A stretch of 64,000 nt of DNA, taken from positions 1-64,000 of the IMG/VR virus record IMGVR_UViG_3300027996_000012, one strand, 5' to 3'. Position numbers and translations under genes: made by a program. The DNA comes from a virus. Its lineage: Duplodnaviria; Heunggongvirae; Uroviricota; Caudoviricetes. Within the stretch, counting starts at the first letter, position 1, and each line of letters opens with the position of its first letter. This document shows, one piece after another, positions 21,078 through 55,970 of this stretch. Below the pieces are notes generated by a model. It did not search any database. It was not told where the DNA came from and was given only the letters and a program-made list of their open reading frames with translations.

Positions 21078-21767
21078 TTACCCCATACAAGCTAGTGCTC
21101 TGACAGCTTGGCCCCAGTTGCCATTAGCGATTTGCAACTCATCCCGCGCCATACCCAAACATTCTTGCAGCGTATAGGGAGACGGTTCAGTGCGTAAACT
21201 CGTAATGATGTGGTGAGCAATGACTTCGGCTTGGTGGTCAAGTTCTTCCAAGGTTCCATCATTGAGAACCCTGGCGTCCCAACCCAAATACTTGGCAAGG
21301 GCCTGATCGGCGACATCGTTTCCGGGGTAGAAGCCTGGTCGCTCCACAAGGATGCTCAATCCACCCAGATCAGCAATCCGGGTTGCTTCATTCGGGAACC
21401 GAACATCGGGGATGATCAGCACATCAGGCTCAACCACGGGGCGCAGAGCATAATCGACCCATGTGCCATCGTAGACCTGTTCCCGAATCGCGGGGGTGCC
21501 CAGATCGATCCACACCTTACGTGGGGACTTGCCGATAGCTGGTAGGACGACTTCTCGCAGTGCTGCACCCTCCGGTGTATTGTAGAAGTCCTTGTCCTTG
21601 AGCCCTGCCCAACCATACAGGTCGTGGGCGATCTCTTTGAGTTTGTCTGCAAAGCCCACAGTACGCATGTCCCAATCCGGGCGATACTTCCTCAAGTGGG
21701 TCTTGAGCATCTCTGCAATAGTGTCCTTGCCAACTCGCTTCGCGTGACCAAATCCAACAAGTATCAT
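21078..21767 (-). CDS. deoxynucleoside monophosphate kinase-like P-loop protein
   Basis: N-terminal GFGHAKRVGKDTIAEML resembles the phage dNMP kinase GxxxxGKDT P-loop. Confidence 0.55.
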   Translation of the reverse strand: MILVGFGHAKRVGKDTIAEMLKTHLRKYRPDWDMRTVGFADKLKEIAHDLYGWAGLKDKDFYNTPEGAALREVVLPAIGKSPRKVWIDLGTPAIREQVYDGTWVDYALRPVVEPDVLIIPDVRFPNEATRIADLGGLSILVERPGFYPGNDVADQALAKYLGWDARVLNDGTLEELDHQAEVIAHHIITSLRTEPSPYTLQECLGMARDELQIANGNWGQAVRALACMG

Positions 21768-27813: not shown

Positions 27814-28365
27814 ATGTTGAGAACAATCGGCAATTTTGAACTCGGCGATTGGCATATTCCGGTACAGACTGGAATTCCTGATGCCACCGAGTTTCTACGA
27901 CTCGCATACAATCTTGCACATAAGAAGAGCGACGACCCCAGCACTGAAGTTGGTGCTGTTGTTGTCCGTAAAGGTGAGGTACTGGTTTCTGGCGTGAATC
28001 ACATGCCAGCCAGAAGCCTGTGCTTCGATAAGGCCAACCTTGAGCGACCCTACAAGTACAAACTCATAGAGCACGCCGAGCGAGATGCCGTGTACACTGC
28101 CGCCAGATGTGGGGTGGCCCTTGATGGGAGTGTTATGTTTGCTCCGTGGGCTGCCTGTTCAGACTGCGCCAGAGCCATTGTCCTGAGTGGGATTGATCAT
28201 GTGGTGGCCCATTATCAGGCTATCGAGCAGACACCGAAGCGATGGAAAGAAGAAATCGAGATCGGGCTCCGCATCTTTGATGCGGCTGGAGTGAGCTATG
28301 TCCTGTTTGACGGGAATATCGGGGGCGTTGAGAATCTGTTCGACGGAAAAATCTGGTATCCGTAA
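27814..28365 (+). CDS. dCMP / cytidine deaminase (zinc-dependent)
   Basis: HAERDAV ... PWAACSDCA is the H(A/C)E ... PCxxC zinc-binding signature. Confidence 0.85.
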   Translation: MLRTIGNFELGDWHIPVQTGIPDATEFLRLAYNLAHKKSDDPSTEVGAVVVRKGEVLVSGVNHMPARSLCFDKANLERPYKYKLIEHAERDAVYTAARCGVALDGSVMFAPWAACSDCARAIVLSGIDHVVAHYQAIEQTPKRWKEEIEIGLRIFDAAGVSYVLFDGNIGGVENLFDGKIWYP

Positions 28366-29413: not shown

Positions 29414-29421
29414 GAAATGGT

Positions 29422-29494
29422 GCGGGTTGGAGCAGTCCGGTTAGCTCGCCAGACTCATAATCTGGGGGTCTGGGGTTCAAATCCCTGACCCGCT
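29422..29494 (+). tRNA. tRNA-Met/Ile2 (anticodon CAT)
   Basis: Cloverleaf with acceptor GCGGGTT/GACCCGC, D-arm GAGCAGTCCGGTTAGCTC, anticodon stem CCAGA/TCTGG with loop CTCATAA, and T-loop GGGGTTCAAATCC. Confidence 0.7.
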
Positions 29495-29499
29495 ACTTA

Positions 29500-37128: not shown

Positions 37129-37404
37129 GTGATGGATGTCGCCGATGCATTGATGGAAGAGCTTCTGGCTGCCAAAGCCAGATTGGAAGCTCAGCTTCCG
37201 ATTATCATACGAGCTATCGTTGATTTGTCTCCAAACGTTGATGGGTCGCCTACGAGCGATGATGTTCTGGCAGACATTTACAAACAACTGTCGGATGCGA
37301 ATGTCGATAGCGAACACGGCCACTTTTCTGACAATGTCCTGTGCTGTCTTTACGAACTTTGGATCGAGCAGGACCGAATTCCTCAAGGAGAAGACGATGA
37401 ATAG
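37129..37404 (+). CDS. hypothetical acidic protein (91 aa)
   Basis: ORF whose 3' end overlaps the rsr start. Confidence 0.5.
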   Translation: MMDVADALMEELLAAKARLEAQLPIIIRAIVDLSPNVDGSPTSDDVLADIYKQLSDANVDSEHGHFSDNVLCCLYELWIEQDRIPQGEDDE

Positions 37405-38980
37405 GTACGCACGCACACTTTCGCCAAGTAACACTCCTCAGACGCGCCCCTTGGTCGGTAGTAACCAAGTCGCCAACAGCGGCGGTGGCTTTGGTTGGGA
37501 AGTTGATTGCTGGACACGCTTGGATCGGTTTCTGATTCTTGGGTGTGAAGGCGGAACCTATTATGCCGGTGAGCAGAAGCTCACTATCGAAGCTGCTGAG
37601 TCTCTTCGCATCTGTGCTGCTGAGGATGCACAGCGAACCGTGGACCGCATTGTGCAGATCAGTGACGAAGGCCGGGCTGCAAAGAATGACCCTGCCATTT
37701 TCTGTTTGGCTATGTTGTGTGCCGATGCCCGCTACAGTAGCATTGCACTGCCGCGCCTTAGCGAAGTATGTCGAATCGGAACACACCTGTTCCAATTCGT
37801 GGATGCAGTGACTCAATTCCGTGGCTGGGGCCGTGCCTTGAAGCGTGCCGTCTCGAACTGGTATCTGAATCACCGACCTGATCGGCTGGCCGCTCAGATT
37901 ACGAAGTACAAGCAACGCGGTGGCTGGTCTCATCGTGACGTGCTTCGGTGTTGCCATGCACACACCAACAACGCCGAGATCAACCAGATCCTTGGGTACG
38001 CCGTGCGGAAGCCGGGTGGGGATTACCCGATGGTGACCAACCACACACTGGAAGGCGTCGAAAAGGTCAAGTTGGCTACCACCTCGAAAGAGGTTGCCGC
38101 CTTGGTTCGGAGCTACGGCTTGGTCCGTGAGAACATCCCGACTCAGTTCCTCAATGACCCAAGAGTCTGGGAAGCCATGCTTGAGTTGCGGATGCCTATG
38201 ACGGCTTTGATCCGGAATTTGGGTAAGATGACCAGCATCGACGTTCTGAAGCCCAACACCTCAGCAGTGAAGCAGGTATGTGCCCAGCTTCGGGACCGAG
38301 AGCAGCTTCAACGTGCTCGGGTACATCCATTCAGCGTGCTGCTGGCACTCTCCACCTATCAACAAGGTTGTGGTGTTCGTGGCAGTCTCCGTTGGAGCCC
38401 TGTAACCCAGGTGTTGGATTCCCTGGAAGACGCCTACGATGCATCCTTTGGGTACGTCGAGCCCACTGGTCAGCGTTATCTGCTGGGTGTGGATGTGTCT
38501 GGGTCCATGACCTATGGCACGATCAACAACACGCACTTGACGCCACGGGATGCTGCCGGGTGTATGGCTGCTACTTTGGTTCGATCTGAGGACCAAGTGC
38601 AGACCTATGGGTTCTGCAATACCTTCCACTCGTTGCCCGTTACCAAGCGAACATCGCTTTCTGAAGTGAATCGCATGATCACCGGCCTCCCATTTGGTCG
38701 CACAGACTGTTCACTTCCGATGAGGTACGCGACCCAGGAAAAGATTCCGACTGATGTGTTCGTGATCTACACGGACAGCGAGACCAACTGTAACAGCGTA
38801 CACCCTGCTGTAGCACTACAGGACTACCGCCGGAAGATGGGTATCAACGCCAAGTTGATTGTGGTGGCCTTCACCGCCAACGAGATCTCCATCGCGGACC
38901 CCAACGATGCAGGGATGCTCGATGTCGTTGGCTTCGATGCCAGTGCCCCGAAGATCATGGCTGACTTTGCCCGCGAATGA
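37397..38980 (+). CDS. rsr: Ro60 orthologue (Rsr) with TROVE and vWA domains
   Basis: The TROVE-like N-terminus WEVDCWTRLDRFLILGCEGGTYYAGEQKLT is followed by a vWA MIDAS motif LLGVDVSGSMTYG. The 527 aa length matches Ro60. ATG at 37397 follows AAGGAGAAGACG. Confidence 0.75.
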   Translation: MNRYARTLSPSNTPQTRPLVGSNQVANSGGGFGWEVDCWTRLDRFLILGCEGGTYYAGEQKLTIEAAESLRICAAEDAQRTVDRIVQISDEGRAAKNDPAIFCLAMLCADARYSSIALPRLSEVCRIGTHLFQFVDAVTQFRGWGRALKRAVSNWYLNHRPDRLAAQITKYKQRGGWSHRDVLRCCHAHTNNAEINQILGYAVRKPGGDYPMVTNHTLEGVEKVKLATTSKEVAALVRSYGLVRENIPTQFLNDPRVWEAMLELRMPMTALIRNLGKMTSIDVLKPNTSAVKQVCAQLRDREQLQRARVHPFSVLLALSTYQQGCGVRGSLRWSPVTQVLDSLEDAYDASFGYVEPTGQRYLLGVDVSGSMTYGTINNTHLTPRDAAGCMAATLVRSEDQVQTYGFCNTFHSLPVTKRTSLSEVNRMITGLPFGRTDCSLPMRYATQEKIPTDVFVIYTDSETNCNSVHPAVALQDYRRKMGINAKLIVVAFTANEISIADPNDAGMLDVVGFDASAPKIMADFARE

Positions 38981-39058: not shown

Positions 39059-39087
39059 TTGACACTGTCTCCCAGCGGTGATACAAT
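39059..39087 (+). promoter_or_regulatory. sigma70-like promoter TTGACA-17-TACAAT
   Basis: Consensus hexamers lie directly after the terminator and upstream of the 39094 gene. Confidence 0.55.
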
Positions 39088-39093
39088 AGGACT

Positions 39094-39438
39094 ATGGAAC
39101 CTACACTTCCCGTTCAACAGCAGATCGACAATGCGGCCATAGCAACGGCCCAGTTGAATTTGCAAGCCGCTCAGGCTAAACACCAGGTGCGCATATACGA
39201 AATCACCCGTGCGCAGAACCAGGTGCGACCGTCCAGCCTCTATACTCCGGTGCTTTACCATGACGGCCTTTGCTGGGTCGCTTGGTATGGTGGCGTCAGT
39301 GAAGAGGTTCAAAAGATGCTTCCGGAAGACGTGACCTCACCGGGTGTGAAAGCCATGGGGTCCTCACCGGCCGAAGCACTCACCAATTTCGATAAACACT
39401 GGTTAGGTATGGAGTTGAAAGACAGTGACCCCGAGTGA
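39094..39438 (+). CDS. hypothetical protein
   Basis: ORF downstream of the promoter. Confidence 0.55.
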   Translation: MEPTLPVQQQIDNAAIATAQLNLQAAQAKHQVRIYEITRAQNQVRPSSLYTPVLYHDGLCWVAWYGGVSEEVQKMLPEDVTSPGVKAMGSSPAEALTNFDKHWLGMELKDSDPE

Positions 39439-40084
39439 AGTTGCCTCAAAAGTTGATCTGGCTGTTCTCAATCCGGCTGCAAGCTATGACATGATTTTAG
39501 CCGGGGCCGAACTGGCAATAGAATACCAGGTAGCCAGCTTCTGTGTCAACCCTACCTGGGTGAGCACGGCAGCACACCGCCTCTCTGGTTCTGGTATCGG
39601 GGTTTGTGCGGTTGTAGATTTCCCACATGGTTCAAGCCGTGCTGAGATGAAAGCATCCCAAACGATATTTGTACTGAATGAGGGAGCCACCGAGGTTGAT
39701 ATGGTTATGAATCTTGGCAAGTTTGCTTCTGGGTTCATGGCTCCTGTTCGTTTTGACATGGAGGCCGTCTGCAAGCTCACACAAGCCAAGAATGTCCCAT
39801 TAAAGGTCATCATCGAATCTTCAGTGTGGAATCCAACTGAGATCAGAATTGCCTGTGATCTGGTGATCAGGTCAGGGGCACAGTACGTTAAGACTTCAAC
39901 AGGCTTCACTGGGACGGCTTCCGTTGAAGACGTGAAGACCATCATAGATGCAGTAGGCGACAAGATTCTTGTTAAAGCATCTGGTGGTATCAAGACTTTC
40001 GAGCAGGCTGTTACGTATTTGGAACTTGGATGTGCCCGGTTGGGCCTCTCTGATATCGAAGGAGTATTGCGAACCGCCCCTTGA
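39425..40084 (+). CDS. deoC: deoxyribose-phosphate aldolase (DeoC)
   Basis: SFCVNPTWV, KVIIESSVW, the active-site Lys context YVKTSTGF, and KASGGIKTF. Confidence 0.8.
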   Translation: MTPSEVASKVDLAVLNPAASYDMILAGAELAIEYQVASFCVNPTWVSTAAHRLSGSGIGVCAVVDFPHGSSRAEMKASQTIFVLNEGATEVDMVMNLGKFASGFMAPVRFDMEAVCKLTQAKNVPLKVIIESSVWNPTEIRIACDLVIRSGAQYVKTSTGFTGTASVEDVKTIIDAVGDKILVKASGGIKTFEQAVTYLELGCARLGLSDIEGVLRTAP

Positions 40085-40101
40085 CAACGGAGTTCCTCCC
40101 T

Positions 40102-40569
40102 ATGTACTCTCCCAGAATCTACTTAGCAGGCCCCATCACGGGGTTGTCGTATGAAGATGCGACTGTGTGGCGCATTGAAGCAACGAATGCCTTACCGGCA
40201 GTTCGTTGCTATTCTCCGATGCGTGCCAAACAAGCCCAACGCAAGTGTAAGAAGCTGGGTTGGGGTGCCAATGAAGTCAACGCGACGGACCCCATCTTCA
40301 CGATTCGTGGGATCATCACACGAGATTACTTGGACTGTGTCAAAGCAGACCTACTCCTCGTGAACTTTGAACCATGTGCCCCTGAAGTCAGTGTCGGCAC
40401 CGTGTCAGAAATCTCATGGGCTTGGGCCGCGCATGTTCCAACGATTGTGATTGCCAAAGAAGGCAACATCCATGACCAGAAATGGATTCGAGAGTTGGTC
40501 CCATTCTGGACAGACGATCTTGAAGATGCCCTTCGGTTGGTCCGAACCATTTTGTTTCCCGGAGTTTGA
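40102..40569 (+). CDS. nucleoside 2-deoxyribosyltransferase / DNPH1 (Rcl)-like dNMP N-hydrolase family protein
   Basis: N-terminal RIYLAGPITG and SVGTVSEISWAWAA resemble the NDT/DNPH1 signatures SIYFCGSIRGG and DSGTAFELGYA. Confidence 0.5.
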   Translation: MYSPRIYLAGPITGLSYEDATVWRIEATNALPAVRCYSPMRAKQAQRKCKKLGWGANEVNATDPIFTIRGIITRDYLDCVKADLLLVNFEPCAPEVSVGTVSEISWAWAAHVPTIVIAKEGNIHDQKWIRELVPFWTDDLEDALRLVRTILFPGV

Positions 40570-40570
40570 G

Positions 40571-41002
40571 ATGAAAGAGTACGTAGCTGGATTCTTCTTT
40601 GATACACAACTTGAACGAGTTGTTCTGATCGAGAAACAGCGTCCGAATTGGCAGAAGGGTTTCTACAACGGGATCGGTGGTCACATTGAACCCGATGACG
40701 AGTATCCAGAGGATGCCATGGAGCGCGAGTTCCTGGAAGAGACCGGGCACCTGGTTGAGAAATGGAAATGGCATCTGTTTTGCGTCTATCACAATGACGA
40801 GTTCATGGTGCATTTCTTCATGGCTATAGGTGATGTCCATGCGGTCCAGACAACAACAGACGAGCGGGTTGAGAGGCATTGGATTGACCATCTCCCCAGC
40901 AACGTGATACCCAATCTGCTTTGGCTGATCCCATTGGCCATTCAGAGTCAAGATAGCGACATCTTTGCTGACGTACAAGCCCCGCTCATAGGAGATGGTT
41001 GA
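40571..41002 (+). CDS. NUDIX hydrolase
   Basis: Nudix box GGHIEPDDEYPEDAMEREFLEETG. Confidence 0.8.
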   Translation: MKEYVAGFFFDTQLERVVLIEKQRPNWQKGFYNGIGGHIEPDDEYPEDAMEREFLEETGHLVEKWKWHLFCVYHNDEFMVHFFMAIGDVHAVQTTTDERVERHWIDHLPSNVIPNLLWLIPLAIQSQDSDIFADVQAPLIGDG

Positions 41003-41445
41003 TGCCAGCAATCTCCTATCAACGCGGGCAACAATTGACGTACCAGGGTGGTGCCTGGCGATATGTTGATGACGGTGCATTAGTCACTGAGGTACGCCCA
41101 TGTGTGCGTTGTGGCAGGATGCCAACCGAGGACGGACACGACGCCTGCTTAGGTCGTATCCCCGGTATTGTGAGTGCCTGCTGTGGTCATGGTATTGAAG
41201 CACCATACAAAACACCCGGAACACGTCTGTACTGTCATCAACTTGGTGAGTACGGGTATCACATGAGTAGCTGTTGTGCCTGTTGCCATGGCTTGACAAA
41301 GGCATCTTCCTTGATGGAATACGAAATGAAGGATGGTAATACGGCTGTGGTTTGTGGCGGGGCTGCTAAGTTCTTGGAAGACAACGGCTGTCTTGTACCG
41401 GGTCAGTCAATTGGACATGGTTGTGACTGGAGGGGCGATCAATGA
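41002..41445 (+). CDS. Cys-rich hypothetical protein
   Basis: Multiple CxxC and CC motifs. TGATG-coupled. Confidence 0.5.
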   Translation: MPAISYQRGQQLTYQGGAWRYVDDGALVTEVRPCVRCGRMPTEDGHDACLGRIPGIVSACCGHGIEAPYKTPGTRLYCHQLGEYGYHMSSCCACCHGLTKASSLMEYEMKDGNTAVVCGGAAKFLEDNGCLVPGQSIGHGCDWRGDQ

Positions 41446-47125: not shown

Positions 47126-47842
47126 TTGCCAGATGCACATACGATTACCGTGGTGGAACCCGGATTTGAGTTGAGTCCGTATAACAACTTTGCACAGTTG
47201 GAACGAGCCTGTGAATGGGCCGGTCGCAAGTGCTACAAGTCGGAAGACAAGATCACCGCTGACTCGGCCACCAAATTCTGTCGGGGTTTGCTCAGTCGCA
47301 AGCCGCCACACCAGAGTGTGGTTGAGCACGCAATCTTGACAGCAAATATCATCTGTAGCCGCTCATGCAGCCACCAGTTGGTTCGGCATCGGATTGCGGC
47401 ATATAGCCAAGAATCACAGCGGTACTGTGACTATGGCAAGAAGGGCTTTCAGATCATTTGCCCACCTAGTATTGGTGTTCCCGCAGGGGAATACACAGTG
47501 GAGCGCAATGGTGTCAATGGATCATTGTTCTGTTACCCTGATCCTACTACGATAGAACAGAAGTGGTTCATGTACAAGGCTTGGCAGGACTATGATTTGT
47601 ACATGCAGTATCGTGAACGCGGGATCAAACCAGAAGATGCCCGTGAAGTATTGGGCAATTGTACCAAGACTGAAGTTGTTTCAACCTTCAATATCAGTAT
47701 GTGGCGACATGTTTTCAAGGAACGTGCCTTGAACCCACGAGCCCAGTGGCAGATTCGCGGCATCTTTCGGAGCATCCTGGACGTGTTTGTCGAACGAGCA
47801 CCCTCACTATTCGCTGACCTTTTGGAGACGGATGAAGCATGA
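47126..47842 (+). CDS. thyX: flavin-dependent thymidylate synthase ThyX (TTG start)
   Basis: The ThyX motif RHRIAAYSQES (RHR-x7-S). RBS AAGGAG lies 8 nt upstream of the TTG. Confidence 0.8.
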   Translation: MPDAHTITVVEPGFELSPYNNFAQLERACEWAGRKCYKSEDKITADSATKFCRGLLSRKPPHQSVVEHAILTANIICSRSCSHQLVRHRIAAYSQESQRYCDYGKKGFQIICPPSIGVPAGEYTVERNGVNGSLFCYPDPTTIEQKWFMYKAWQDYDLYMQYRERGIKPEDAREVLGNCTKTEVVSTFNISMWRHVFKERALNPRAQWQIRGIFRSILDVFVERAPSLFADLLETDEA

Positions 47843-50472
47843 GTATGGAAATAACACCACTCTTTTGTGACGAGATGGACCCGTTTGAAAGCGTGGACTG
47901 GGACAAACGAAATGCGAGTATTATTGGTGAAGGTGATGAAGTCATCTTCAGCCAAACTGACATAGACGTACCGGTGTCTTGGTCACAAACTGCCCTCAAC
48001 ATTGTGGCCAGTAAATACTTCTATGGTGAGCAGGACACGGATGAGCGGGAAACCAGCATCCGACAACTGATTCATCGGGTTACCAAGACTGTTACCGACT
48101 GGGGTATTGAAGATGGGTACTTCGACAAAGAGAACGGTGAAGTATTTTACCGTGAACTTACCTGGCTTTGTCTCCACCAACACATGGCCTTCAATTCACC
48201 AGTCTGGTTCAATGTTGGTATATGGCAGGAATATGGTGTCACCGGCACCCCTTGTGGTTTCACTTGGAACGATGGCGAGATTCTCCCTGTTCAGAACCCC
48301 CATGAAGAACCCCAGGTCTCTGCATGTTTCATCCAGAGCGTGGCTGACAACATGGAAGACATCATGCGGTTTGCAACGGATGAAGCCATGCTGTTCAAGT
48401 TTGGCTCCGGCGTAGGTGCTGATCTTTCAACACTGCGTGGTTCATGCGAGAAGCTGTCCGGTGGCGGTCGTGCTTCTGGTCCTCTGAGCTTTGCTCGTAT
48501 CTACAACATGGTTGCAGAGGTAGTCAAAAGTGGTGGCAAGACCCGGCGGGCAGCCCTATTGTTTAGCATCAAGGATTCGCATCCGGACCTGATGCAGTTC
48601 ATTCAGTGCAAGGCCCGCGAAGAAGCCAAGGCAGCTACACTGGTGGGCAAGGGGTATTCACCGCAGGATGCCTACATGTCGGTGCTGTACCAGAATGCTA
48701 ACCTATCTGTTCGACTCTCGGATGAGTTCATGATTCAAGTGAACAAAGATGGAGATTGGTATACTCGGTGGGTCACCGATTCGGCCGTGAGTGGGCCTCA
48801 CCATAAAGCGCGGGCGATACTACGTGCCATTGCCGAAGCAGCATGGGAGTGTGGCGACCCCGGAGTGCAGTTCGATACAGCTTTGAATAAGTGGCATACT
48901 TGCCCGGTGTCTGGTAGAATCAATGCCAGCAACCCATGTGGTGAGTACAATTACCTAGACAATTCGGCATGTAACCTTGCCAGTTTGAATCTGATGAAGT
49001 TTCGACAGCAAGATGGCTCACTGAATGTTTCGTTGTTTCAGGCTGCGGCTCGTATCGCTTTGATAACACAGGATATCATGGTGGATAGAGCTAGCTATCC
49101 GTCTGCTAAGATCGCACAGACCAGTCATCGACACCGGGCTTTGGGACTTGGGTACTCAAATTTGGGTAGCTTTGTCATGTCCAACGGGGTTGCGTATGAT
49201 TCAGAGCTTGGTAGAAGCATATGTGCTGGCATCACTGCTATCATAACTGGGACTGCTTATGCAGCCAGTGCCGAGATTGCCGAACACCTGAGTCCATTCG
49301 AGGACTTTGAGTTGAACCGTACTCCGATGCTTGAGGTAATGAGTGAGCATTATGCAGCTTTAGGGCGAATGCCAATGCCAGCATATCTCGCTGAAGCGGC
49401 CCATATCGTTTGGAAACACGCGCGGACACACGGTGATCTACATGGGTACCGTAATGCTCAAACCACCGTGCTCGCTCCAACGGGCACCATTTCATTCATG
49501 ATGGATTGTTCCACGTTTGGTATCGAACCTGATTTGGCTCTGATGAAATACAAGAGGCTGGCTGGTGGTGGCACCCTAAAGATGGTCAACAAGAGTGTCC
49601 CGAAGGCCCTTCGTTTCCTGGGCTACGCAGAGGACGATATCGATACTCTCATGGCTTGGGTCGAAGAGAAGGGTACCTTTGAAGGTTCCCTGTTGAAGCC
49701 GGATCATTTGTCAGTATTCGACACAGCCTTAGCTCCACAGGGTAGCTCCAGAAGTATTGCCGCTAGCGCCCATTTGAAGATGTTGGCGGCAGCACAGCCA
49801 TTCCTTAGTGGTGCGATTTCTAAGACAATCAACATGCCTGCATCGGCGACAGTGCAGGACTTTGAGGACGCCATTATCAAGGCATGGCGACTCGGACTCA
49901 AGTCTGTTACTCTTTACAGAGATGGTTCTAAGAGCCACCAACCACTGAACACGGCGTTGGACAAAAAGGGTGCGAGTCAATCCCCGCCTAAACAAGTTCG
50001 CCGACCGCTCCCGGATGAACGGAAGTCCGTCACGAAAAAGATTTCGATCAGCGGACATGAAGGTTATGTCACCGTGGGTCTGTATCCCGATGGCACACCT
50101 GGGGAGCTTTTCATTGCCATGTCAAAAGAGGGAAGCACTATTAGTGGGATGATGGATGCATTCAGTATCGCTGTGTCTCTGGGCTTCCAACATGGTGTCC
50201 CGATGACTACGTTTGTGGACAAGTTTGCCTACATGCAGTTTGAGCCGATGGGCTTCACGAAGGATGCGGACATCAAGATGGCAAAATCAATTGTGGACTT
50301 CATCTTTCGGTGGATGCAATTGCGATTCCAAATTTCAGAAGTTGCCACGACCACTTCTGAAACGACCGATCAAGAAGCCACGCCGATTTGTGATCAGTGT
50401 GGCAGCATGACAGTTCGCAGTGGGTCATGCTATCTGTGTTACAACTGTGGAACATCAATGGGCTGTAGCTAA
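47839..50472 (+). CDS. ribonucleotide reductase, probably class II (B12-dependent NrdJ-like), with a C-terminal zinc ribbon
   Basis: Active-site NPCGE, 877 aa, C-terminal CDQCGS...CYLCYNCG. No separate beta subunit was seen. Confidence 0.8.
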   Translation: MSMEITPLFCDEMDPFESVDWDKRNASIIGEGDEVIFSQTDIDVPVSWSQTALNIVASKYFYGEQDTDERETSIRQLIHRVTKTVTDWGIEDGYFDKENGEVFYRELTWLCLHQHMAFNSPVWFNVGIWQEYGVTGTPCGFTWNDGEILPVQNPHEEPQVSACFIQSVADNMEDIMRFATDEAMLFKFGSGVGADLSTLRGSCEKLSGGGRASGPLSFARIYNMVAEVVKSGGKTRRAALLFSIKDSHPDLMQFIQCKAREEAKAATLVGKGYSPQDAYMSVLYQNANLSVRLSDEFMIQVNKDGDWYTRWVTDSAVSGPHHKARAILRAIAEAAWECGDPGVQFDTALNKWHTCPVSGRINASNPCGEYNYLDNSACNLASLNLMKFRQQDGSLNVSLFQAAARIALITQDIMVDRASYPSAKIAQTSHRHRALGLGYSNLGSFVMSNGVAYDSELGRSICAGITAIITGTAYAASAEIAEHLSPFEDFELNRTPMLEVMSEHYAALGRMPMPAYLAEAAHIVWKHARTHGDLHGYRNAQTTVLAPTGTISFMMDCSTFGIEPDLALMKYKRLAGGGTLKMVNKSVPKALRFLGYAEDDIDTLMAWVEEKGTFEGSLLKPDHLSVFDTALAPQGSSRSIAASAHLKMLAAAQPFLSGAISKTINMPASATVQDFEDAIIKAWRLGLKSVTLYRDGSKSHQPLNTALDKKGASQSPPKQVRRPLPDERKSVTKKISISGHEGYVTVGLYPDGTPGELFIAMSKEGSTISGMMDAFSIAVSLGFQHGVPMTTFVDKFAYMQFEPMGFTKDADIKMAKSIVDFIFRWMQLRFQISEVATTTSETTDQEATPICDQCGSMTVRSGSCYLCYNCGTSMGCS

Positions 50473-50484
50473 CAGGAGATACAC

Positions 50485-51141
50485 ATGCTGACTATTACAC
50501 AACTGATTCAAGAATCCCATGGCACCGCAGTGGAAAAGGGTTGGTGGGAAGATTGGGACCGCAACTTTGGTGAAATGCTGATGCTGTTCATTACTGAGAT
50601 CACCGAAGTCTGGGAAGAAATCAGTGATGATGGCATCCCCAACCCAGCCCAGTGGATAACCATCAACCCGGATACTCAGAAGCCAGAAGGCTTGGCTGTC
50701 GAATTTGCTGACTTGTTGATTCGAGCCGCCGACACTGTGGGGCGATACGAACTCCCACTGGTAGAAGCATTGAAGAGTCTCCTAAGCTGGGATAAGGTTT
50801 ATCGTGAGATAGACAACGAGCCGGTGGCTCGATTTGTACCCATCGAGTTGTTGATGGGCCGGTCGTTTGCTGTCGTGGGTGAGGGACAGGACGAGGAGTG
50901 GGTACGGGGCAATTTACAAGATGGCCTGCTGGACATCATCACCCCGATTAGCCATGCCATGGAAGCCTACCGTGTCAGTGGTGTCGAAGACACCCGAATT
51001 CTGGCGGGACATTTTGCCGAGATATTCATAGCGACGGCAGCACTCTGTGAAGATTTTGATGTACCGCTTGAAAAGGCTCTGGAAGTCAAGCTGGCTTACA
51101 ACAAGACACGACCGTACCGACATGGAGGAAAGAAAGCATGA
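50485..51141 (+). CDS. MazG-like nucleotide pyrophosphohydrolase
   Basis: EEXXE-type tracts EMLMLFITEITEVWEE and an all-alpha composition. Confidence 0.5.
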   Translation: MLTITQLIQESHGTAVEKGWWEDWDRNFGEMLMLFITEITEVWEEISDDGIPNPAQWITINPDTQKPEGLAVEFADLLIRAADTVGRYELPLVEALKSLLSWDKVYREIDNEPVARFVPIELLMGRSFAVVGEGQDEEWVRGNLQDGLLDIITPISHAMEAYRVSGVEDTRILAGHFAEIFIATAALCEDFDVPLEKALEVKLAYNKTRPYRHGGKKA

Positions 51142-52352
51142 GACGCCAATGCATAGTTTGTGAGTCCAGGAACCTAATCCCATTGTATGATCCCGGCCCA
51201 CAGCCGTTGACCACATTACGTATTCCACAGACGGTTGCTGATGCTATGTGTGCCCCTAAATTCGGGATGCATCATGTTCTGTGTGAGGATTGTGGCCACA
51301 TTTTCAATCTTCAATTTGAAGAGAAGAACGTGGACTATGAACAGGACTGGCAGATGTACAATAGTGGCATTGCCTGGAAGGATCATTTTGAGCGGGCGGC
51401 CAACGAGATTCTGGAACGTGCCCAATTACCTGATACCAGTACAGTTCTTGAAATCGGGAGCGGTAGCGGCGGGTTTATGCGCGAAATGATTCAGTATCCA
51501 CTCGGGGCCCGTCTTCGATACCGTGGCGTCGATCCTGGCGTTGATGTGTCAGATGCTGAGTTTGCCAACGAAGGCCAGGATATCATCATTGAACGCGCAT
51601 TTGCCAACTGTGAATACGACATTGATAAGCATGAGCCCAGTTTGATCATCATGCGACATGTCCTGGAGCACTTCCCGCGTCCAGCCGAGTTTATCGATGA
51701 ACTGGTGCGTGCCTGCCACATTACTCAGGTATCCCCGTTTGTGTTCATCGAAGTGCCTAATGGCGATCTCATTCTGGATCGGCTTCGTTCACAGGACATG
51801 ATGTACGAGCATGTTTCACATTTCACGCTGAGTAGCTTGGATGTACTACTGCGTAAGCATTTTCGTGTAGTCTATCTCAAGCCAGACTGCCGTGGATCGA
51901 TGCTGACCGCGTTGGTGAAATTACGATCCCCAATGTCACATCGGAAACGGGCCGAGGGGTTTGCTGATCAGATCGCCCTTCAGGTCGCCACGGTACAGGG
52001 TCAATTGGAGTTCCTTAGAACCCAAGAGTTGGATGACACGTACAACCGACCGCTAGCCTTCTGGGGCGCGATTGGCAAGAGTGCTTCATTCTTCAATCTG
52101 TATCAAGTGGACAAGACACGGTACCCGTTGGTGGTGGATTCTAATTTGGCCTTGGTGGAACTGTTTGTCCCCGGCACAGGGCAGGAAATCAAATTTCCTA
52201 TCGACGAGTTGGTGCAAGATCCGCCACGAACCATCATTGTTACGTCAGCTTGGCGAATTCACGATATCGCTGATCAAATTCGTTCGATTGGCATCAACTG
52301 CAAGCAAATCATGTACATTGACAACGGTCAACTTGTACCATATGGAGGGTGA
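51138..52352 (+). CDS. SAM-dependent methyltransferase of the NDP-hexose C-methyltransferase (TylC3-like) architecture
   Basis: An N-terminal CxxC...CxxC zinc module, the SAM motif VLEIGSGSGGF, and a C-terminal extension. Confidence 0.6.
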   Translation: MRRQCIVCESRNLIPLYDPGPQPLTTLRIPQTVADAMCAPKFGMHHVLCEDCGHIFNLQFEEKNVDYEQDWQMYNSGIAWKDHFERAANEILERAQLPDTSTVLEIGSGSGGFMREMIQYPLGARLRYRGVDPGVDVSDAEFANEGQDIIIERAFANCEYDIDKHEPSLIIMRHVLEHFPRPAEFIDELVRACHITQVSPFVFIEVPNGDLILDRLRSQDMMYEHVSHFTLSSLDVLLRKHFRVVYLKPDCRGSMLTALVKLRSPMSHRKRAEGFADQIALQVATVQGQLEFLRTQELDDTYNRPLAFWGAIGKSASFFNLYQVDKTRYPLVVDSNLALVELFVPGTGQEIKFPIDELVQDPPRTIIVTSAWRIHDIADQIRSIGINCKQIMYIDNGQLVPYGG

Positions 52353-52353
52353 T

Positions 52354-54192
52354 ATGTTCCCATCGATTCAAGCATTAGGCCAGTTTGGTGATATCTTCAA
52401 GCATGTAGCCGTTCGACTCAAGTTGGCATACGAGACCAGAAACTACCCTCAGTATGCTGCCTTGTTCAATGATTCCATGGGTTTGTATCACAAGCTGGAA
52501 TCAGCCCGCCCGGATGCCGCAGCTAAAGCCGGAATCTCTGATTTCATGGGAGTGTTGTTGTCCACCTTCGTAGGCGAAAAATTCCAACTGGAAGCCTATG
52601 ATGCCGCCCGCTTCATTGATTTCAATCCGATGATAGCCAACCTCTTAGCTGCCTCAAAGCACGAGACAGCGGACAGATGGTTGGATCAACTCTTGGATGC
52701 TGACGGACAGATTGCTGAGCCATTTGAGCACAACTTTCTGAAGGTACTGGTACTGCTGTCATCTCGTATCAGACGCCGGGTGAATTTTGACATCTTGCAT
52801 GAGGGCGACCGAGAGGCTGTAGCCCTGTGGTGGTCAGCATATACACGCGGAGTCAGCAACACAGCGGAAGATTACATCAATGAGAATCTGACTCGATGTT
52901 TCCGATGGGGACCACCGCCTGCATTCCCTCAAGATACTCGCGTTACTAATGCTGCTTTCCTTGCGTCCTACAAAGACCTGCCGGGGAGTCGAAAGCTGAA
53001 GCAGCGGGTCAACGAGCACATTCAGAAGAGATGGCCACAGCTTGAAGTCACCAACAACCCCGATCCAAAACGGATAGCGGTTATCACCAATAGCTGGCAG
53101 AATCGCCATGTGATCTATCGTACTATGGGGCCGCTGGTTAAGGCCCTGCATGGCCAGTATCGCATGGATCTGTTTCAAGGGCAACCCCATGACCCTGATA
53201 AACAAGACACGACCATCTTTGAGAACGTGTATGAGTTGTCAACCGACAAGAAGGACCCGTTGCAGAATCTTGGACCGCTACTAAATAACCAGTATGGTGC
53301 GGTCATGTATGTTGACATTGGTATGTCGAATCTGTCGGTGATCCTCTCGAATCAGAGATTTGCGCCAATACAAATGGCACTGATGGGACATCCAGTCAGT
53401 ACGTTTGGTGGTAAGATCGACTACTTCATCAGCGGTGACCTTGGTGAGAATCTAAACATGGCAGAAGTGAATTACTCTGAGCGATTGGTATTGCTGCCTG
53501 GCCTGGGGATTCAAGCCACACAACCTGCTTACGAGTTGCAACGCCCCAAGCGGGATGAGACCATCGTTATCAATGCGTGCTGGAGTGGTGCCAAATTCAA
53601 TCGCCCCATGTTAGAAGCTGTTCGTGATGCAATGGACAATGCAAAGCGGAAGTCACGGGTCCACTTCTTCCCGAACGACGGGATCAATCGTTACTTTGGG
53701 TTCAGTGCTTTTGAAAACAGTACCAAGAGCATTATGGGTGACCGCGCGGTGATCATGGAGACAGCAGGCGGGCGACCCGCTTACATGCACAGACTAGAGC
53801 GTGGCGACTTCGGAATTGACTCCTATCCGTTCTGTGGGTTCAACACGATCTTTGACCTGTTGCATGTTCAGAATCCAGTTGTCACATTCCAGGGTGGCCA
53901 GTGGCACAATCGAGCATCTTCAGCAATTATCGATGTCATGGGTATGGGTGAGTTGATTACCACTAACTATGACACATACCGCGATCTGATCACGCGAATG
54001 ATCGATGATGATGATTTTCGTACCAAAATGGTAGCCCGTATCAAACAAGATGTGCTGCGGGATGCGTTCTATACTGACACGACGGAGCAGGTGGCGTTCA
54101 AGACTGCTGTGCAGTATCTCATTGAACAGCAACCCAATCCGAATACTATCAGTCCCATTTACATTCGTGGAGCAAGTCCATGCCACATTTGA
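52354..54192 (+). CDS. GT41-family (OGT / HMW1C-like) glycosyltransferase, paralogue 1
   Basis: The C-terminal lobe tracks the OGT/HMW1C catalytic domain: INACWSGAKFNRPMLEAV, HFFPNDG, DSYPFCGFNTIFDLLHVQNPVVTFQGG..ASSAIIDVMGMGELIT. ATG at 52354 follows GGAGGG. Confidence 0.6.
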   Translation: MFPSIQALGQFGDIFKHVAVRLKLAYETRNYPQYAALFNDSMGLYHKLESARPDAAAKAGISDFMGVLLSTFVGEKFQLEAYDAARFIDFNPMIANLLAASKHETADRWLDQLLDADGQIAEPFEHNFLKVLVLLSSRIRRRVNFDILHEGDREAVALWWSAYTRGVSNTAEDYINENLTRCFRWGPPPAFPQDTRVTNAAFLASYKDLPGSRKLKQRVNEHIQKRWPQLEVTNNPDPKRIAVITNSWQNRHVIYRTMGPLVKALHGQYRMDLFQGQPHDPDKQDTTIFENVYELSTDKKDPLQNLGPLLNNQYGAVMYVDIGMSNLSVILSNQRFAPIQMALMGHPVSTFGGKIDYFISGDLGENLNMAEVNYSERLVLLPGLGIQATQPAYELQRPKRDETIVINACWSGAKFNRPMLEAVRDAMDNAKRKSRVHFFPNDGINRYFGFSAFENSTKSIMGDRAVIMETAGGRPAYMHRLERGDFGIDSYPFCGFNTIFDLLHVQNPVVTFQGGQWHNRASSAIIDVMGMGELITTNYDTYRDLITRMIDDDDFRTKMVARIKQDVLRDAFYTDTTEQVAFKTAVQYLIEQQPNPNTISPIYIRGASPCHI

Positions 54193-55970
54193 CACGAGCT
54201 TTACCTGATCTTCTTCTCGATGATATTCGTCAGGCTTACAAAGAGAAGAACTATATGCACTACATGGTGTTGATAGTCGAAGCTATGCGACTCTTTTGCA
54301 CCGTCAACTTTGGTCCAATGCAGCCAAAAACCGAGAAGTATGTGGACGAGTTTCTGGAAGTCTTCCTGGATACATTCACCGGGAAGAAGTTTCGTATTGC
54401 AGGCATGGATGAGGAATACTTCGTCCGCCTAAATCCAGTCATCGCCAACATCGTAGCCATGTCCAGATTCAAGACCGCCGATAAGTGGTTGGCCCAACTG
54501 GATATGCGAACCAAAGGCCATCGTGCCAAGATACTCACCCTGGTGTGCCCACGGACCAGCGTACAGGTTGACTATGACACTTTGGAGAAGGACTCATTAG
54601 CAACCCTGTGGTGGTCACTATATCCAACCTGCACGGGTAGCATCATCAACCCACGAATCGAAAAGAATCTCCGAAATCATTTCAGGGCCGGACCCTTTGG
54701 TGATTTTCCACAAACCACCCAGTTCACGGACATCCACTTTGTGCCAACGTATGCTGATCATGACGGTGCCCCGTTGATTAAGGCTCGTATCAACGAGTGT
54801 GTTCGTAAGAAGTGGCCGCCTATGAAGATCACAAACAACCCAGATCCAAAGCGGATTGCAATCATTTCTGACCGGTGGGCACCCAACACTGTGGTCCATC
54901 GAAGTGTGGCCCCGCTCATCAACGCTCTGAAGGGGCCGTTCAAGTTGGACTTGTTTCATTTGAACAGGGATGCTGGTGATTTGAAATTGGACACCGAGGG
55001 CTTCGAGAAGGTTCATTTCATCCATACTGAGGGCAATGATTTCCTCGGTCTGGAACCGTTGTTGGATAACCAGTACGCAGCTATCATCTACCCGGATGTT
55101 GGCATGAACTCGCAGTCCATCATTCTGGCCAACCAAAGATTTGCACCCATCCAGGTTTTGACCACCGGCCACCCAGTCAGTACAGTTGGAACCGAGATTG
55201 ATTTTTTCATCAGTGGAGACGCTGTGGAGTCCTCTGAGGCGTACCTTAATTATTCAGAGCGGTTAGTGTTACTCCCTGGGATGGGAAATCAGTCAGTTCG
55301 CCCAACATACGAACTCACCAACCCGGAGCGGGAAACTGACATTGTTCTGATCAACGCATGTTGGGGCCCGTCTAAGTACAATCGTGATATGCTTACGGCT
55401 GTGCGAGCCGGGATGATGGATGCCAAACACGAGTCGCGTGTACATTTCTTCCCAAGCAGCGGGATCTGTCGTTACAACGGGTTGAATGCATTCCTGACGG
55501 AGATTCACGACATTTTTGAGGGCGGGAGCGCCCGTGTTCTACCCGATAATGGTGGTTATGCTGGTTATATGGCCAGATTGGAATGGGGCGATTTTGGTAT
55601 TGATTCTTTCCCGTTCGGAGGTTACAATACAATTATCGATCAATTGCATGTTGGTAAACCAGTAATCACTCTACAGGGTGATCATTGGTACAATAGAGCA
55701 TCATCGGCCGTGAACCGTATGCTGAACATGCCGGAACTCATTGCTGAGAGTCGGTATGGATACCAGAAACTGATCACACGGATGATTGATGACGAAGAGT
55801 TTCGCCAGGAAATGCGGCAGCGTGTACAGGTTGCGCCAATGGACGAGAAGATTTATGACAACATATCCGAACCGGCTCATTTTGTGGCTGCCATGGACTA
55901 CTTGATCGAGCATCATCCCGATCCTAATTTTCCTCACCCCGTGTATATCTCGCCAGGAGAAACTATATGA
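54180..55970 (+). CDS. GT41-family glycosyltransferase, paralogue 2
   Basis: Collinear with paralogue 1: INACWGPSKYNRDMLTAV, HFFPSSG, DSFPFGGYNTIIDQLHVGKPVITLQGD. Confidence 0.6.
   Translation: MPHLTRALPDLLLDDIRQAYKEKNYMHYMVLIVEAMRLFCTVNFGPMQPKTEKYVDEFLEVFLDTFTGKKFRIAGMDEEYFVRLNPVIANIVAMSRFKTADKWLAQLDMRTKGHRAKILTLVCPRTSVQVDYDTLEKDSLATLWWSLYPTCTGSIINPRIEKNLRNHFRAGPFGDFPQTTQFTDIHFVPTYADHDGAPLIKARINECVRKKWPPMKITNNPDPKRIAIISDRWAPNTVVHRSVAPLINALKGPFKLDLFHLNRDAGDLKLDTEGFEKVHFIHTEGNDFLGLEPLLDNQYAAIIYPDVGMNSQSIILANQRFAPIQVLTTGHPVSTVGTEIDFFISGDAVESSEAYLNYSERLVLLPGMGNQSVRPTYELTNPERETDIVLINACWGPSKYNRDMLTAVRAGMMDAKHESRVHFFPSSGICRYNGLNAFLTEIHDIFEGGSARVLPDNGGYAGYMARLEWGDFGIDSFPFGGYNTIIDQLHVGKPVITLQGDHWYNRASSAVNRMLNMPELIAESRYGYQKLITRMIDDEEFRQEMRQRVQVAPMDEKIYDNISEPAHFVAAMDYLIEHHPDPNFPHPVYISPGETI

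Follow-up and report, generated by a model that had tools for sequence, protein, structure and literature searches.

A phage gene trio encoding DeoC, an NDT-fold protein and a NUDIX hydrolase points to a possible three-step route of deoxynucleotide catabolism

Introduction

In the PurZ0 phages with Z genomes, such as Ghobes and Wayne, the enzymes DutZ and DmtZ together turn dATP into adenine, and the published assay couples them with E. coli DeoC (PMC12884076). Phage T5 degrades host dNMPs with the 5'-deoxynucleoside monophosphatase Dmp, which is encoded in one operon with A1, and relies on de novo synthesis for its nucleotides (bioRxiv 10.64898/2026.04.02.716235). Beyond phages, the mammalian MTH1 (NUDT1), DNPH1 (Rcl) and DERA proteins, the CMP/hmCMP N-glycosidases MilB, BlsM and BcmB of antibiotic biosynthesis, and the bacterial deo operon (deoCABD) offer further points of comparison.

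The window studied here, i.e., the whole 64-kb stretch of DNA that was analysed out of a phage genome of roughly 178 kb, carries three consecutive genes for a deoxyribose-5-phosphate aldolase (DeoC), a protein of the nucleoside 2-deoxyribosyltransferase (NDT) fold and a NUDIX hydrolase. As in the DutZ/DmtZ system, a predicted dNTP pyrophosphohydrolase lies beside a predicted NDT-fold dNMP N-glycosidase, and the two would lead from dNTP to free base. However, the pyrophosphohydrolase is here a NUDIX and not a Dut-like protein, the PurZ context is lacking, and DeoC, used in the earlier study merely to couple the assay in vitro, is encoded beside the NDT-like gene. The resemblance to T5 lies in the proposed destruction of host-derived dNMPs alongside de novo synthesis; it is one of function, Dmp being a phosphatase and the protein described here a predicted N-glycosidase, and whereas T5 excretes nucleosides, the sugar would in this case enter glycolysis. 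The mammalian trio comprises the same three folds and the same three chemical steps, which are predicted for the phage proteins. DeoC is likewise the terminal step of deoxynucleoside catabolism in the deo operon, but bacteria reach 2-deoxyribose-5-phosphate (dR5P) by a nucleoside phosphorylase and a phosphopentomutase, both of which a single nucleotide N-glycosidase would replace in the phage.

Organisation of the locus

The three genes lie on the plus strand between 39425 and 41002, as the first-pass annotation had placed them, and independent gene prediction on public contigs of identical sequence yields products of equal length (219, 155 and 143 aa). The motifs that it quoted are likewise present, RIYLAGPITG as residues 5–14 and SVGTVSEISWA as residues 97–107 of the NDT-like protein, along with GGHIEPDDEYPEDAMEREFLEETG. 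Its description of the trio as translationally coupled applies in part: two junctions are overlapping, that of DeoC with the ORF upstream (14 nt) and that of the NUDIX gene with the next ORF (TGATG), but the two junctions within the trio are spaced: 17 nt that include a separate GGAG lie between DeoC and the NDT-like gene, and 1 nt, with a GGAG upstream, between the latter and the NUDIX gene. Such tight packing is a feature of the whole same-strand block and not of the trio alone. A promoter-like site (TTGACA-17-TACAAT with TG; 39059–39087, plus strand), recognised purely as a consensus match (11 of 12 positions), falls in the gap between the end of a Ro60 gene (38980) and the ORF starting at 39094, and is likely to be the start of an operon carrying the trio. 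Compared with known phages, the DNA of the window shows a single similarity, a 110-nt match in Ro60 to Gordonia phages.

DeoC and the NDT-like protein

DeoC (39425–40084, plus strand; GTG start, 219 aa; class I, short type) scores 187.3 bits against the NCBIfam equivalog model TIGR00126 (cutoff 117.3), and 39 solved DERA-derived sequences in the PDB match it at E ≤1e-4, the best at 4e-43. Its residues D92, K127, K156 and K184 align with D102, K137, K167 and K201 of E. coli DERA, which comprise the Schiff-base lysine and the other catalytic Asp and Lys residues, and all four columns are invariant across four phage DeoCs. The window protein itself finds no match in Pfam (PF01791) or PHROGs, while an orthologue (L001) has PF01791 on record; the missing match may reflect the limited sensitivity of so broad a model. 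By these sequence comparisons DeoC is certainly a bona fide DERA, which bears out its initial identification.

The 155-aa NDT-like protein (40102–40569, plus strand; ATG start) has the NDT (flavodoxin-like) fold, in which the nucleophile Glu follows the fourth strand. Its Pfam scores lie below the gathering thresholds (PF05014, 22.2 versus 28.8 bits; PF15891, 18.5 versus 30), and it groups with DNPH1 neither by sequence nor by fold, true transferases being equally distant. The original DNPH1/Rcl-like label is apt for the hydrolase markers, which are present, but not for descent or grouping: by descent the protein lies outside the DNPH1 family, in an extensive, uncharacterised NDT branch that is almost exclusively viral and for which clustering at 50% identity leaves about 1,100 representatives (E ≤1e-30).

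Within this branch Tyr7 on strand 1, Ser97-x-Gly99 and Glu103 are invariant, and the catalytic Asp is either the nearly invariant Asp75 (at least 90% conserved) or the invariant Asp78. The motif offsets equal those of Y13, D69, S87 and E93 in Rcl, the marker residues of DNPH1, whose Tyr, Glu and Ser six residues before the Glu are shared. The numbering is also almost equal to that of the DmtZ triad (Y6, N77 and E103, against Y7, D75/D78 and E103), but outside the Glu loop hhalign detects no sequence relation to DmtZ (probability 1%).

The best-scoring characterised relatives are MilB, BlsM and BcmB (profile E 2e-5). The S-x-G-T-x-x-E-x-G-W-A motif of these CMP N-glycosidases is present, in the common form S-x-G-T-x-x-E-x-(G/S)-W-A, as are the nucleophile Glu103 and the phosphate ligands Ser97 and Gly99, whose counterparts bind phosphate in MilB (PMC4081090). 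These enzymes serve antibiotic biosynthesis and not phages, and they differ in acting on ribonucleotides and in having a ribose-tolerant strand-1 Phe and an Arg/Lys gate for base and phosphate (Phe22-Arg23) where the NDT-like protein has Tyr and Ile-Thr; the invariant Tyr7 and the Ile12-Thr13 of GPITG in the NDT-like family contrast with F...PFMG/PFKG in BlsM and BcmB. The strand-1 Tyr is a marker of deoxy-specificity, with Phe in its place in the ribo-specific BlsM and BcmB (PMC12884076). True transferases bind the nucleoside 5'-OH through an Asp placed six residues ahead of the nucleophile Glu (PMC12884076); this Asp, found in the transferase 7m5h, is absent from the NDT-like protein, which has the invariant Ser97 there. 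Moreover, nucleoside transferase activity was absent from phage NDTs of unmodified contigs (bioRxiv 10.1101/2025.10.22.683976). The active-site markers fit a 2'-deoxynucleoside-5'-monophosphate N-glycosidase, and we accordingly use this as the predicted activity. Two other relationships were considered and set aside: YtoQ, the top profile match, is itself uncharacterised and has Asp at the nucleophile position, and kinship with DmtZ of Ghobes was rejected (hhalign probability 1.2%).

The NUDIX hydrolase

The third protein (40571–41002, plus strand; ATG start, 143 aa) is a NUDIX hydrolase by its match to PF00293 (38.8 bits versus a gathering threshold of 21.1), and its best solved sequence match is MTH1 (E 8e-6). 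Its AlphaFold2 model (pLDDT 93.7) likewise has MTH1 structures as its top Foldseek matches (E 2e-9, TM 0.66–0.75), in agreement with the NUDIX call made at the outset. The E-x7-REFxEETG core and an NGxGG motif are conserved, with E-x7-REFLEETG intact in the window protein; relative to the Nudix box GX5EX7REUXEEXGU the latter has one additional residue between the G and the E, while the family consensus is canonical. In sequence and predicted fold it resembles the MTH1/MutT-like hydrolases and is predicted to be a (d)NTP pyrophosphohydrolase.

This resemblance raises the matter of pool sanitation, in which damaged or modified dNTPs would be the substrates of the NUDIX protein, and the NDT-like protein would destroy the abnormal dNMPs that result and so keep them from re-phosphorylation, in the manner of human MTH1 and DNPH1 (the latter acting on hmdUMP) followed by DERA. 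The closest solved relatives of the NUDIX protein are indeed MTH1 structures, among them complexes with 8-oxo-dGTP, 2-oxo-dATP and N6-methyl-dAMP, the DNPH1 entries of the PDB are named 5-hydroxymethyl-dUMP N-hydrolase, and the equivalent of MTH1 Asn33, within NGxGG, is kept and invariant. However, Asp119 and Asp120, by which MTH1 reads damaged bases, are replaced by Asn and Leu, and since they are not conserved the protein need not share the substrates of MTH1. Further, the broad link of the NDT branch with genes for A1-type nucleases, dNMP kinases and dATP/dGTP pyrophosphohydrolases (see below) suggests bulk nucleotides and not rare lesions. We accordingly regard sanitation as an improbable role for the trio.

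Recurrence across viral contigs

Scans of viral contigs for DeoC and NUDIX homologues with single-protein queries gave nothing useful, and alignment-based queries were used. An NDT-like ORF is present in 34 of 50 DeoC-encoding IMG/VR contigs (36 with a broader profile), and when viral DeoCs are clustered at 70% identity the DeoC-then-NDT-like pair is found in 22 of the 31 clusters. Counted from the DeoC stop, the NDT-like domain of the 34 loci, obtained with our A1 profile, begins at -6 to 765 nt and shares the strand of DeoC; these loci hold no further matches to the NDT-like profile outside this position. The genes downstream of viral DeoC belong to two different NDT-like families, both of which occur in one locus (L036). 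The pair thus recurs in many uncultured phages and has apparently not been described before; the linkage in 22 of 31 clusters indirectly favours the predicted hydrolysis of dNMP to base and dR5P. DeoC also occurs without an NDT-like neighbour in a 735-kb uncultured phage, and the records of isolated phages with DeoC are mostly unannotated fragments or resemble host DNA.

The linkage is looser at both ends of the trio. DeoC is missing from close relatives at 71–73% identity, and the third step is therefore not obligatory. The adjacency of the NUDIX gene is specific to this phage clade: outside it we found no general linkage of NUDIX relatives to NDT-like or DeoC genes, and these relatives lie in unrelated contexts, including a bacterial chromosome.

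The near relatives without DeoC could be taken to mean that the trio has no common pathway and consists of three independent nucleotide-metabolism or moron genes, the product of the middle one acting as a nucleoside transferase or a ribonucleotide N-glycosidase, or simply binding nucleotides. The tight packing of every gene in the block, the sub-threshold NDT-family Pfam scores, and the presence of true transferases and the uncharacterised YtoQ among the structurally closest proteins are all consistent with such an assortment. Against it, an NDT-like gene of either of two families follows DeoC in those 22 of 31 independent viral clusters; the invariant Ser where 7m5h has Asp argues against a transferase, and the strand-1 Tyr speaks against ribonucleotides. 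Independence of the three genes consequently appears unlikely to us.

Around the NDT branch as a whole, the Pfam domain that occurs most often among immediate neighbours (n = 118) is PF18909 of dATP/dGTP diphosphohydrolases (8); MazG (2) and PF04447 (1) are also seen. A dNMP kinase occurs in 16 loci of the branch, ThyX and RNR occur as well, and most loci resemble ordinary replication modules. As T5 Dmp shares an operon with A1, so the NDT-like gene directly follows homologues of T5 A1 in phage BDU-MI-1 and six IMG/VR loci of the branch, but the window phage lacks an A1 homologue beside the trio.

Nucleotide-metabolism context

Elsewhere in the window, Pfam matches confirm the nucleotide-metabolism enzymes previously listed: a dNMP kinase (21078–21767, minus strand; PF21448, 28.8 versus 27.1 bits; tblastn with a dNMP kinase from one of the loci, E 2e-9), a dCMP deaminase (27814–28365, plus strand; PF00383, E 4.8e-16), ThyX (47126–47842, plus strand; PF02511, E 2e-40) and a ribonucleotide reductase, which is of class II (47839–50472, plus strand; PF02867, E 4e-121, and PF08471). 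The MazG-like enzyme of the same list has no counterpart among the window ORFs scanned. ThyX and the class II reductase give the phage a capacity for de novo dNTP synthesis.

The original annotation had entertained the purging of one host dNTP pool by a phage with a replaced base. In such a scheme the NUDIX and NDT-like proteins would remove one canonical dNTP or dNMP, or transfer dR5P to a modified base as DmtZ does, and DeoC would clear the by-product. DutZ and DmtZ of the PurZ0 phages work in this way (PMC12884076), dZ contigs are enriched in PF05014 proteins, and the domain most often seen next to the family, PF18909/DUF5664, is that of a dATP/dGTP pyrophosphohydrolase and was first reported from a Z phage. 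However, PurZ, DutZ and DmtZ find no match in the 64-kb window, PurZ is absent within 5 kb of any NDT-branch locus, DmtZ is likewise absent from the loci, and Dut-like genes occur in three loci only; kinship with DmtZ is undetectable, the window has ordinary ThyX, dCMP deaminase, RNR and dNMP kinase genes, and family loci mostly resemble ordinary replication modules. With no sign of base replacement in the window or the related loci, we give this reading little weight.

A counter-defence role, also floated at first, would have the NUDIX protein and an NDT/SLOG-fold enzyme break down an immune signal of nucleotide type or a toxic nucleotide produced by a host defence system, or offset nucleotide-depletion defences. 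Nothing points to such a role: the neighbouring genes serve replication and nucleotide synthesis, we saw no context of PADLOC or anti-defence type, and the linkage to DeoC implies dR5P as a product, one not to be expected from known immune signals. We hold it to be very improbable.

A proposed catabolic route and its implications

From these assignments we infer the substrates, direction of flux and physiological role of the trio as follows. The MTH1-like NUDIX protein would convert one or more dNTPs to dNMP and PPi; the NDT-fold enzyme, with Glu103 as nucleophile, would cut the N-glycosidic bond of the dNMP to give free base and dR5P; and DeoC would cleave dR5P to glyceraldehyde-3-phosphate (G3P) and acetaldehyde, thereby drawing the second step forward and clearing dR5P, which is toxic to bacteria. 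As a piece of biochemical logic, the pathway dNTP to dNMP to base and dR5P to G3P and acetaldehyde is well supported. Of the three-step shunt as first put forward, this logic stands, given the enzyme identities, the DeoC–NDT pairing and the DutZ/DmtZ precedent, while the clade-restricted NUDIX link and the dispensability of DeoC in close relatives weigh against it. The opposite, biosynthetic direction (acetaldehyde and G3P to dR5P to dNMP) was rejected because it would require an N-glycoside to form from dR5P and free base without an activating group.

The role that we favour, with moderate confidence, is that this three-step route disposes of or re-routes unwanted deoxynucleotides, for instance those derived from host DNA or in surplus, while the phage makes its own dNTPs via RNR, ThyX, dCMP deaminase and dNMP kinase. 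The trio would then be a functional analogue of T5 Dmp, with base removal instead of dephosphorylation and with recovery of the sugar carbon. More tentatively, and with somewhat less than even confidence, we propose that DeoC and an NDT-fold dNMP N-glycosidase form a widespread, undescribed phage cassette burning deoxynucleotides, probably from degraded host DNA, to glycolytic carbon, acetaldehyde and free bases; the N-glycosidase would come from either of two large, essentially viral families and functionally replace T5 Dmp, and the NUDIX protein would extend the cassette to dNTPs in this clade.

Were this correct, the family of about 1,100 clusters, whose members currently carry the label 'nucleoside 2-deoxyribosyltransferase' or hypothetical, would have to be annotated as dNMP N-glycosidases. 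Metagenomic surveys list viral deoC as a pentose-phosphate auxiliary gene; it would instead be read as the final step of phage-driven catabolism of DNA precursors. The strategy followed by T5, in which host nucleotides are destroyed and the phage synthesises its own, would have a second, chemically different form that is common in uncultured phages, the DutZ/DmtZ principle would extend past the Z-genome phages, and the cassette would be a novel type of pathway for host takeover or auxiliary metabolism, whose enzymes may serve as biocatalysts for nucleotide analogue chemistry.

Against the favoured reading, the destruction of dNMPs seems wasteful for a phage, and its role and base selectivity are not readable from sequence.

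Flanking genes

Two further genes adjoin the trio. The 114-aa ORF upstream of DeoC (39094–39438, plus strand), for which Pfam and PHROG searches gave no match, is present or absent together with DeoC: a homologue lies directly upstream of DeoC in loci L001 and L002, beyond which it has no conserved partner, and both genes are missing in L003–L006. The Cys-rich 147-aa ORF directly after the NUDIX gene (41002–41445, plus strand), also without a match in family searches, is conserved in the clade, with 59–60% identical homologues after NUDIX in L003–L006 and a shortened 79-aa version in L001.

Organization of the locus

The plus-strand stretch 39425-41002 holds three consecutive ORFs, as the first-pass annotation had it: DeoC (39425-40084, GTG start, 219 aa), a nucleoside deoxyribosyltransferase-like (NDT-like) protein (40102-40569, ATG start, 155 aa) and a NUDIX protein (40571-41002, ATG start, 143 aa). 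This is borne out both by ORF calls and by independent gene calls on public contigs with an identical NUDIX protein, where the block proteins measure 219, 155, 143, 147, 176 and 78 aa. Longer alternatives were also considered: homologues lend no support to a start at TTG 40081 for the NDT-like ORF, nor is TTG 40451 supported for NUDIX. No close relative of the window was found among deposited phages; the same or related genes are present on contigs of 177,656 and 178,192 bp.

The gene order is orf39094, DeoC, NDT-like, NUDIX, orf41002, orf41442, orf41969 and an SNF2 helicase, all tightly packed. The DeoC start overlaps the upstream ORF by 14 nt, spacers of 17 nt and 1 nt precede the NDT-like and NUDIX genes, respectively, and the NUDIX stop overlaps the next start as TGATG. 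The gap separating the Ro60 gene from orf39094 contains a near-consensus promoter-like site at 39059-39087 (TTGACA-17-TACAAT, with an extended -10). Therefore, the trio is part of a longer operon, and the three genes are not specially coupled, the whole operon being packed alike; the translational coupling proposed earlier is only partly accurate. Directly after NUDIX lies a Cys-rich 147-aa ORF (41002-41445, +) without a detectable family match, which is conserved in the viral loci L003-L006 and shortened to 79 aa in L001; functionally, it may belong with the NDT-NUDIX pair.

The NDT-like protein is predicted to be a dNMP hydrolase

The middle protein scores under the thresholds for PF05014 and PF15891, and its structural model (pLDDT 93.6) has the NDT fold. 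A profile for remote relatives, built from 25 family members, matched YtoQ (3e-6), BlsM (2e-5), BcmB (2.4e-5) and an NDT (1e-4), and more weakly MilB (2e-3), Rcl (0.045) and DNPH1 (0.13-1). This ranking makes it a separate branch of the NDT superfamily and not a DNPH1 orthologue, and the earlier DNPH1/Rcl-like label does not hold as a statement of descent. The branch comprises about 1,100 representatives at 50% identity (E up to 1e-30) and was found in 197 IMG/VR contigs; 185,579 species genomes yielded just 24 loci, nearly all on MAG contigs from scattered phyla. Hence, it is essentially viral.

While the fold by itself leaves hydrolase versus transferase activity undecided, the active-site columns can decide between them. 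Y7, G10, P11, W23, R24, S38, P39, R41, D78, S97, G99, T100 and E103 are invariant in the family, and conservation reaches 90% or more at D75, R74, K43, N122 and H124. The catalytic Asp candidates are D75 and the invariant D78; D75 aligns with MilB D78 and, presumably, with Rcl D69. In HMM alignments, the family S97-x-G99-T-x-x-E103 falls on these same residues in BlsM, BcmB and MilB, whereas the transferase 7m5h has Asp in the Ser97 column. In MilB, Ser97 and Gly99 hold the 5'-phosphate, Asp78 contacts both ribose and base, and the nucleophile is Glu103 (PMC4081090). NDTs hold the 5'-OH with Asp or Asn, where hydrolases have small uncharged residues (PMC12884076). The family shares the Glu loop motif with the ribo-specific BlsM and BcmB, but where these have Phe in strand 1 it has an invariant Tyr. 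The same Tyr is found in DNPH1, in NDTs and in DmtZ (the dNMP N-glycosidase of PurZ0 phages), where it excludes ribo substrates (PMC12884076). Together, the Ser97/Gly99 phosphate ligands and the strand-1 Tyr point to a 2'-deoxy, 5'-phosphorylated substrate. Thus, the DNPH1-like reading survives at the level of the active site, with Tyr7, Ser97-x-Gly99 and Glu103 as invariant markers of a predicted dNMP hydrolase.

The flanking enzymes

DeoC passes the NCBIfam equivalog TIGR00126 (187 bits; cutoff 117) and matches solved deoxyribose-phosphate aldolases with an E of 4e-43. Its D92, K127, K156 and K184 align with what we take to be the catalytic D102, K137, K167 and K201 of the E. coli enzyme. 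Despite these very strong scores, hmmscan against Pfam and PHROGs gave no match to 39425-40084, which we could not explain beyond the breadth of the models; this is a warning for annotation pipelines based solely on Pfam.

The NUDIX protein passes PF00293, and its closest solved sequences are MTH1 proteins (E 8e-6). In a structure search with its AlphaFold model (pLDDT 93.7), MTH1 likewise ranks at the top (E 2e-9, TM 0.66-0.75), ahead of MutT-type enzymes. Across 22 homologues, the E-x7-REFxEETG core is kept, as is the NGxGG motif (MTH1 Asn33). These matches and motifs argue for a predicted small enzyme of the MTH1/MutT type. The window protein has a G-x5-E spacer that is one residue longer, and the base-reading Asp119 and Asp120 of MTH1 align to Asn and Leu. 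Damaged-nucleotide sanitation is one alternative role for the trio.

Linkage of DeoC and NDT-like genes across viruses

Among 85 loci carrying the window's NDT-like family, DeoC is the immediate upstream gene in L001/L002, L036 and L055, whose NDT-like proteins are 86%, 42% and 38% identical to that of the window, respectively. L003-L006 (71-73% identity) have Ro60, NDT-like and NUDIX genes and lack both DeoC and orf39094, which makes DeoC an accessory module in the window's clade. Between the window (39425-41002) and L001 (5346-6957), the NDT-like proteins are 86% identical, DeoC 56% and NUDIX 51%; this uneven divergence suggests either module exchange or far stronger constraint on the middle gene.

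In the reverse direction, searching with an alignment of four phage DeoCs gave 50 DeoC-encoding viral contigs, 34 of which have an NDT-like profile match (36 with a broader profile); an NDT-like ORF lies downstream in 22 of the 31 DeoC clusters at 70% identity. In the 34 loci, the match starts -6 to 765 nt past the DeoC stop (typically ~15-70), always on the same strand, and none occurs elsewhere in these loci. Three DeoC loci have the window's own family; the others have a second, ~200-aa NDT-like family, in which the Tyr, WR pair, Asp and G-T-x-E-E motif are retained and position -6 is occupied by a small residue. L036 (4315-6061) encodes DeoC followed by one gene of each family, which hints at two base specificities. 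In L089, L095, L099, L100, L105, L119 and L135 (about 4400-5700), the second-family ORF runs into a ~200-aa C-terminal extension, either a fusion or read-through from simple ORF calling, which we guess from the alignment might be HNH/AP2-like.

Among 118 immediate neighbours of the window's family, the commonest identified is PF18909, a dATP/dGTP diphosphohydrolase domain (8), and MazG (2) and PF04447 (1) also occur. A dNMP kinase lies directly downstream of the NDT-like gene in 16 loci; the gene directly upstream is a phrog_284 exonuclease in 13 loci and a homologue of T5 A1 (phrog_1745) in 6. The isolated phage BDU-MI-1 has the order A1, NDT-like, dNMP kinase, and in Tunturi_5 a single small ORF separates the NDT-like gene from the RNR gene upstream of it. 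NUDIX relatives adjoin NDT-like genes in the window's clade only and have unrelated contexts elsewhere; that the three genes have unlinked functions is a further alternative.

A predicted route of deoxynucleotide breakdown

For the DeoC-NDT-like linkage to make chemical sense, the NDT-like enzyme must yield 2-deoxyribose-5-phosphate (dR5P), the substrate of DeoC, and hence cleave dNMPs and not nucleosides. We commit to a route in which NUDIX would convert dNTP to dNMP, the NDT-like enzyme, with Glu103 as nucleophile, would release base and dR5P, and DeoC would cleave dR5P to glyceraldehyde-3-phosphate and acetaldehyde. The enzyme families, active-site markers and gene linkage are established here and support the logic of the three-step shunt proposed earlier, whereas we infer its substrates, any base selectivity, flux direction and biological role. 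E. coli DeoC is the coupling enzyme in a published assay of dNMP N-glycosidase activity, and conversion of dATP to adenine by DmtZ plus the dNTP pyrophosphohydrolase DutZ has been demonstrated (PMC12884076); by analogy, the DeoC/NDT-like phages seem to encode that same coupling. An adjoining pyrophosphohydrolase would extend the route to dNTPs: DutZ beside the N-glycosidase in phage Ghobes, NUDIX in that place here, and DUF5664 or MazG elsewhere.

As annotated at the outset, the window encodes an RNR (class II), ThyX, dCMP deaminase and dNMP kinase, so the phage can, by its predicted gene content, synthesize dNTPs de novo. Phage T5 degrades host DNA through A1, destroys the resulting dNMPs by Dmp, encoded in one operon with A1, and synthesizes nucleotides of its own; when dmp is lost, virulence drops by half (bioRxiv 10.64898/2026.04.02.716235). 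The recurrent position of NDT-like genes right after A1 homologues in some loci suggests an analogous role in nucleotide disposal, with recovery of carbon and free base. Counter-defence is another alternative, as is a base-selective purge for modified DNA. A preprint reports dZ contigs to be enriched in PF05014 proteins (bioRxiv 10.1101/2025.10.22.683976); however, no PurZ or other base-replacement gene was found in the 64-kb window of the about 178 kb genome or in the family loci, which speaks against the replaced canonical base envisaged earlier. The lack of nucleoside transferase activity in NDTs of unmodified contigs (bioRxiv 10.1101/2025.10.22.683976) fits a nucleotide substrate.

Full-text literature searches returned no paper combining phage, deoxyribose-phosphate aldolase and NDT, and the DmtZ study alone (PMC12884076) for phage, N-hydrolase and dR5P. 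Viral deoC has been listed as an auxiliary metabolic gene of the pentose-phosphate pathway. The chemistry is already known from DNPH1, MilB, DmtZ, DERA and MTH1. The apparent novelty lies in the cassette, in which an NDT-like gene follows DeoC, in the two viral families predicted for the N-glycosidase step, and in the three-gene version extended by NUDIX.

Other features of the window

A Ro60/TROVE+vWA protein (37397-38980) directly upstream of the trio operon, an RNA ligase (55967-57061) and an AAA_33 kinase (59314-59766) together resemble a set for RNA repair or RNA quality control; an Rfam scan of the window gave no Y-RNA family above threshold. A tmRNA (62378-62727, +; RF00023, 124 bits) encodes the tag peptide AKPLFATAA, and there are tRNAs for Met (29421-29496), Glu (34425-34498) and Thr (63536-63611), with a weak tRNA-like match at 30048-30137. 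In the plus-strand region 51138-55970, a methyltransferase gene precedes the genes of two large proteins whose C-terminal regions resemble GT41 glycosyltransferases.
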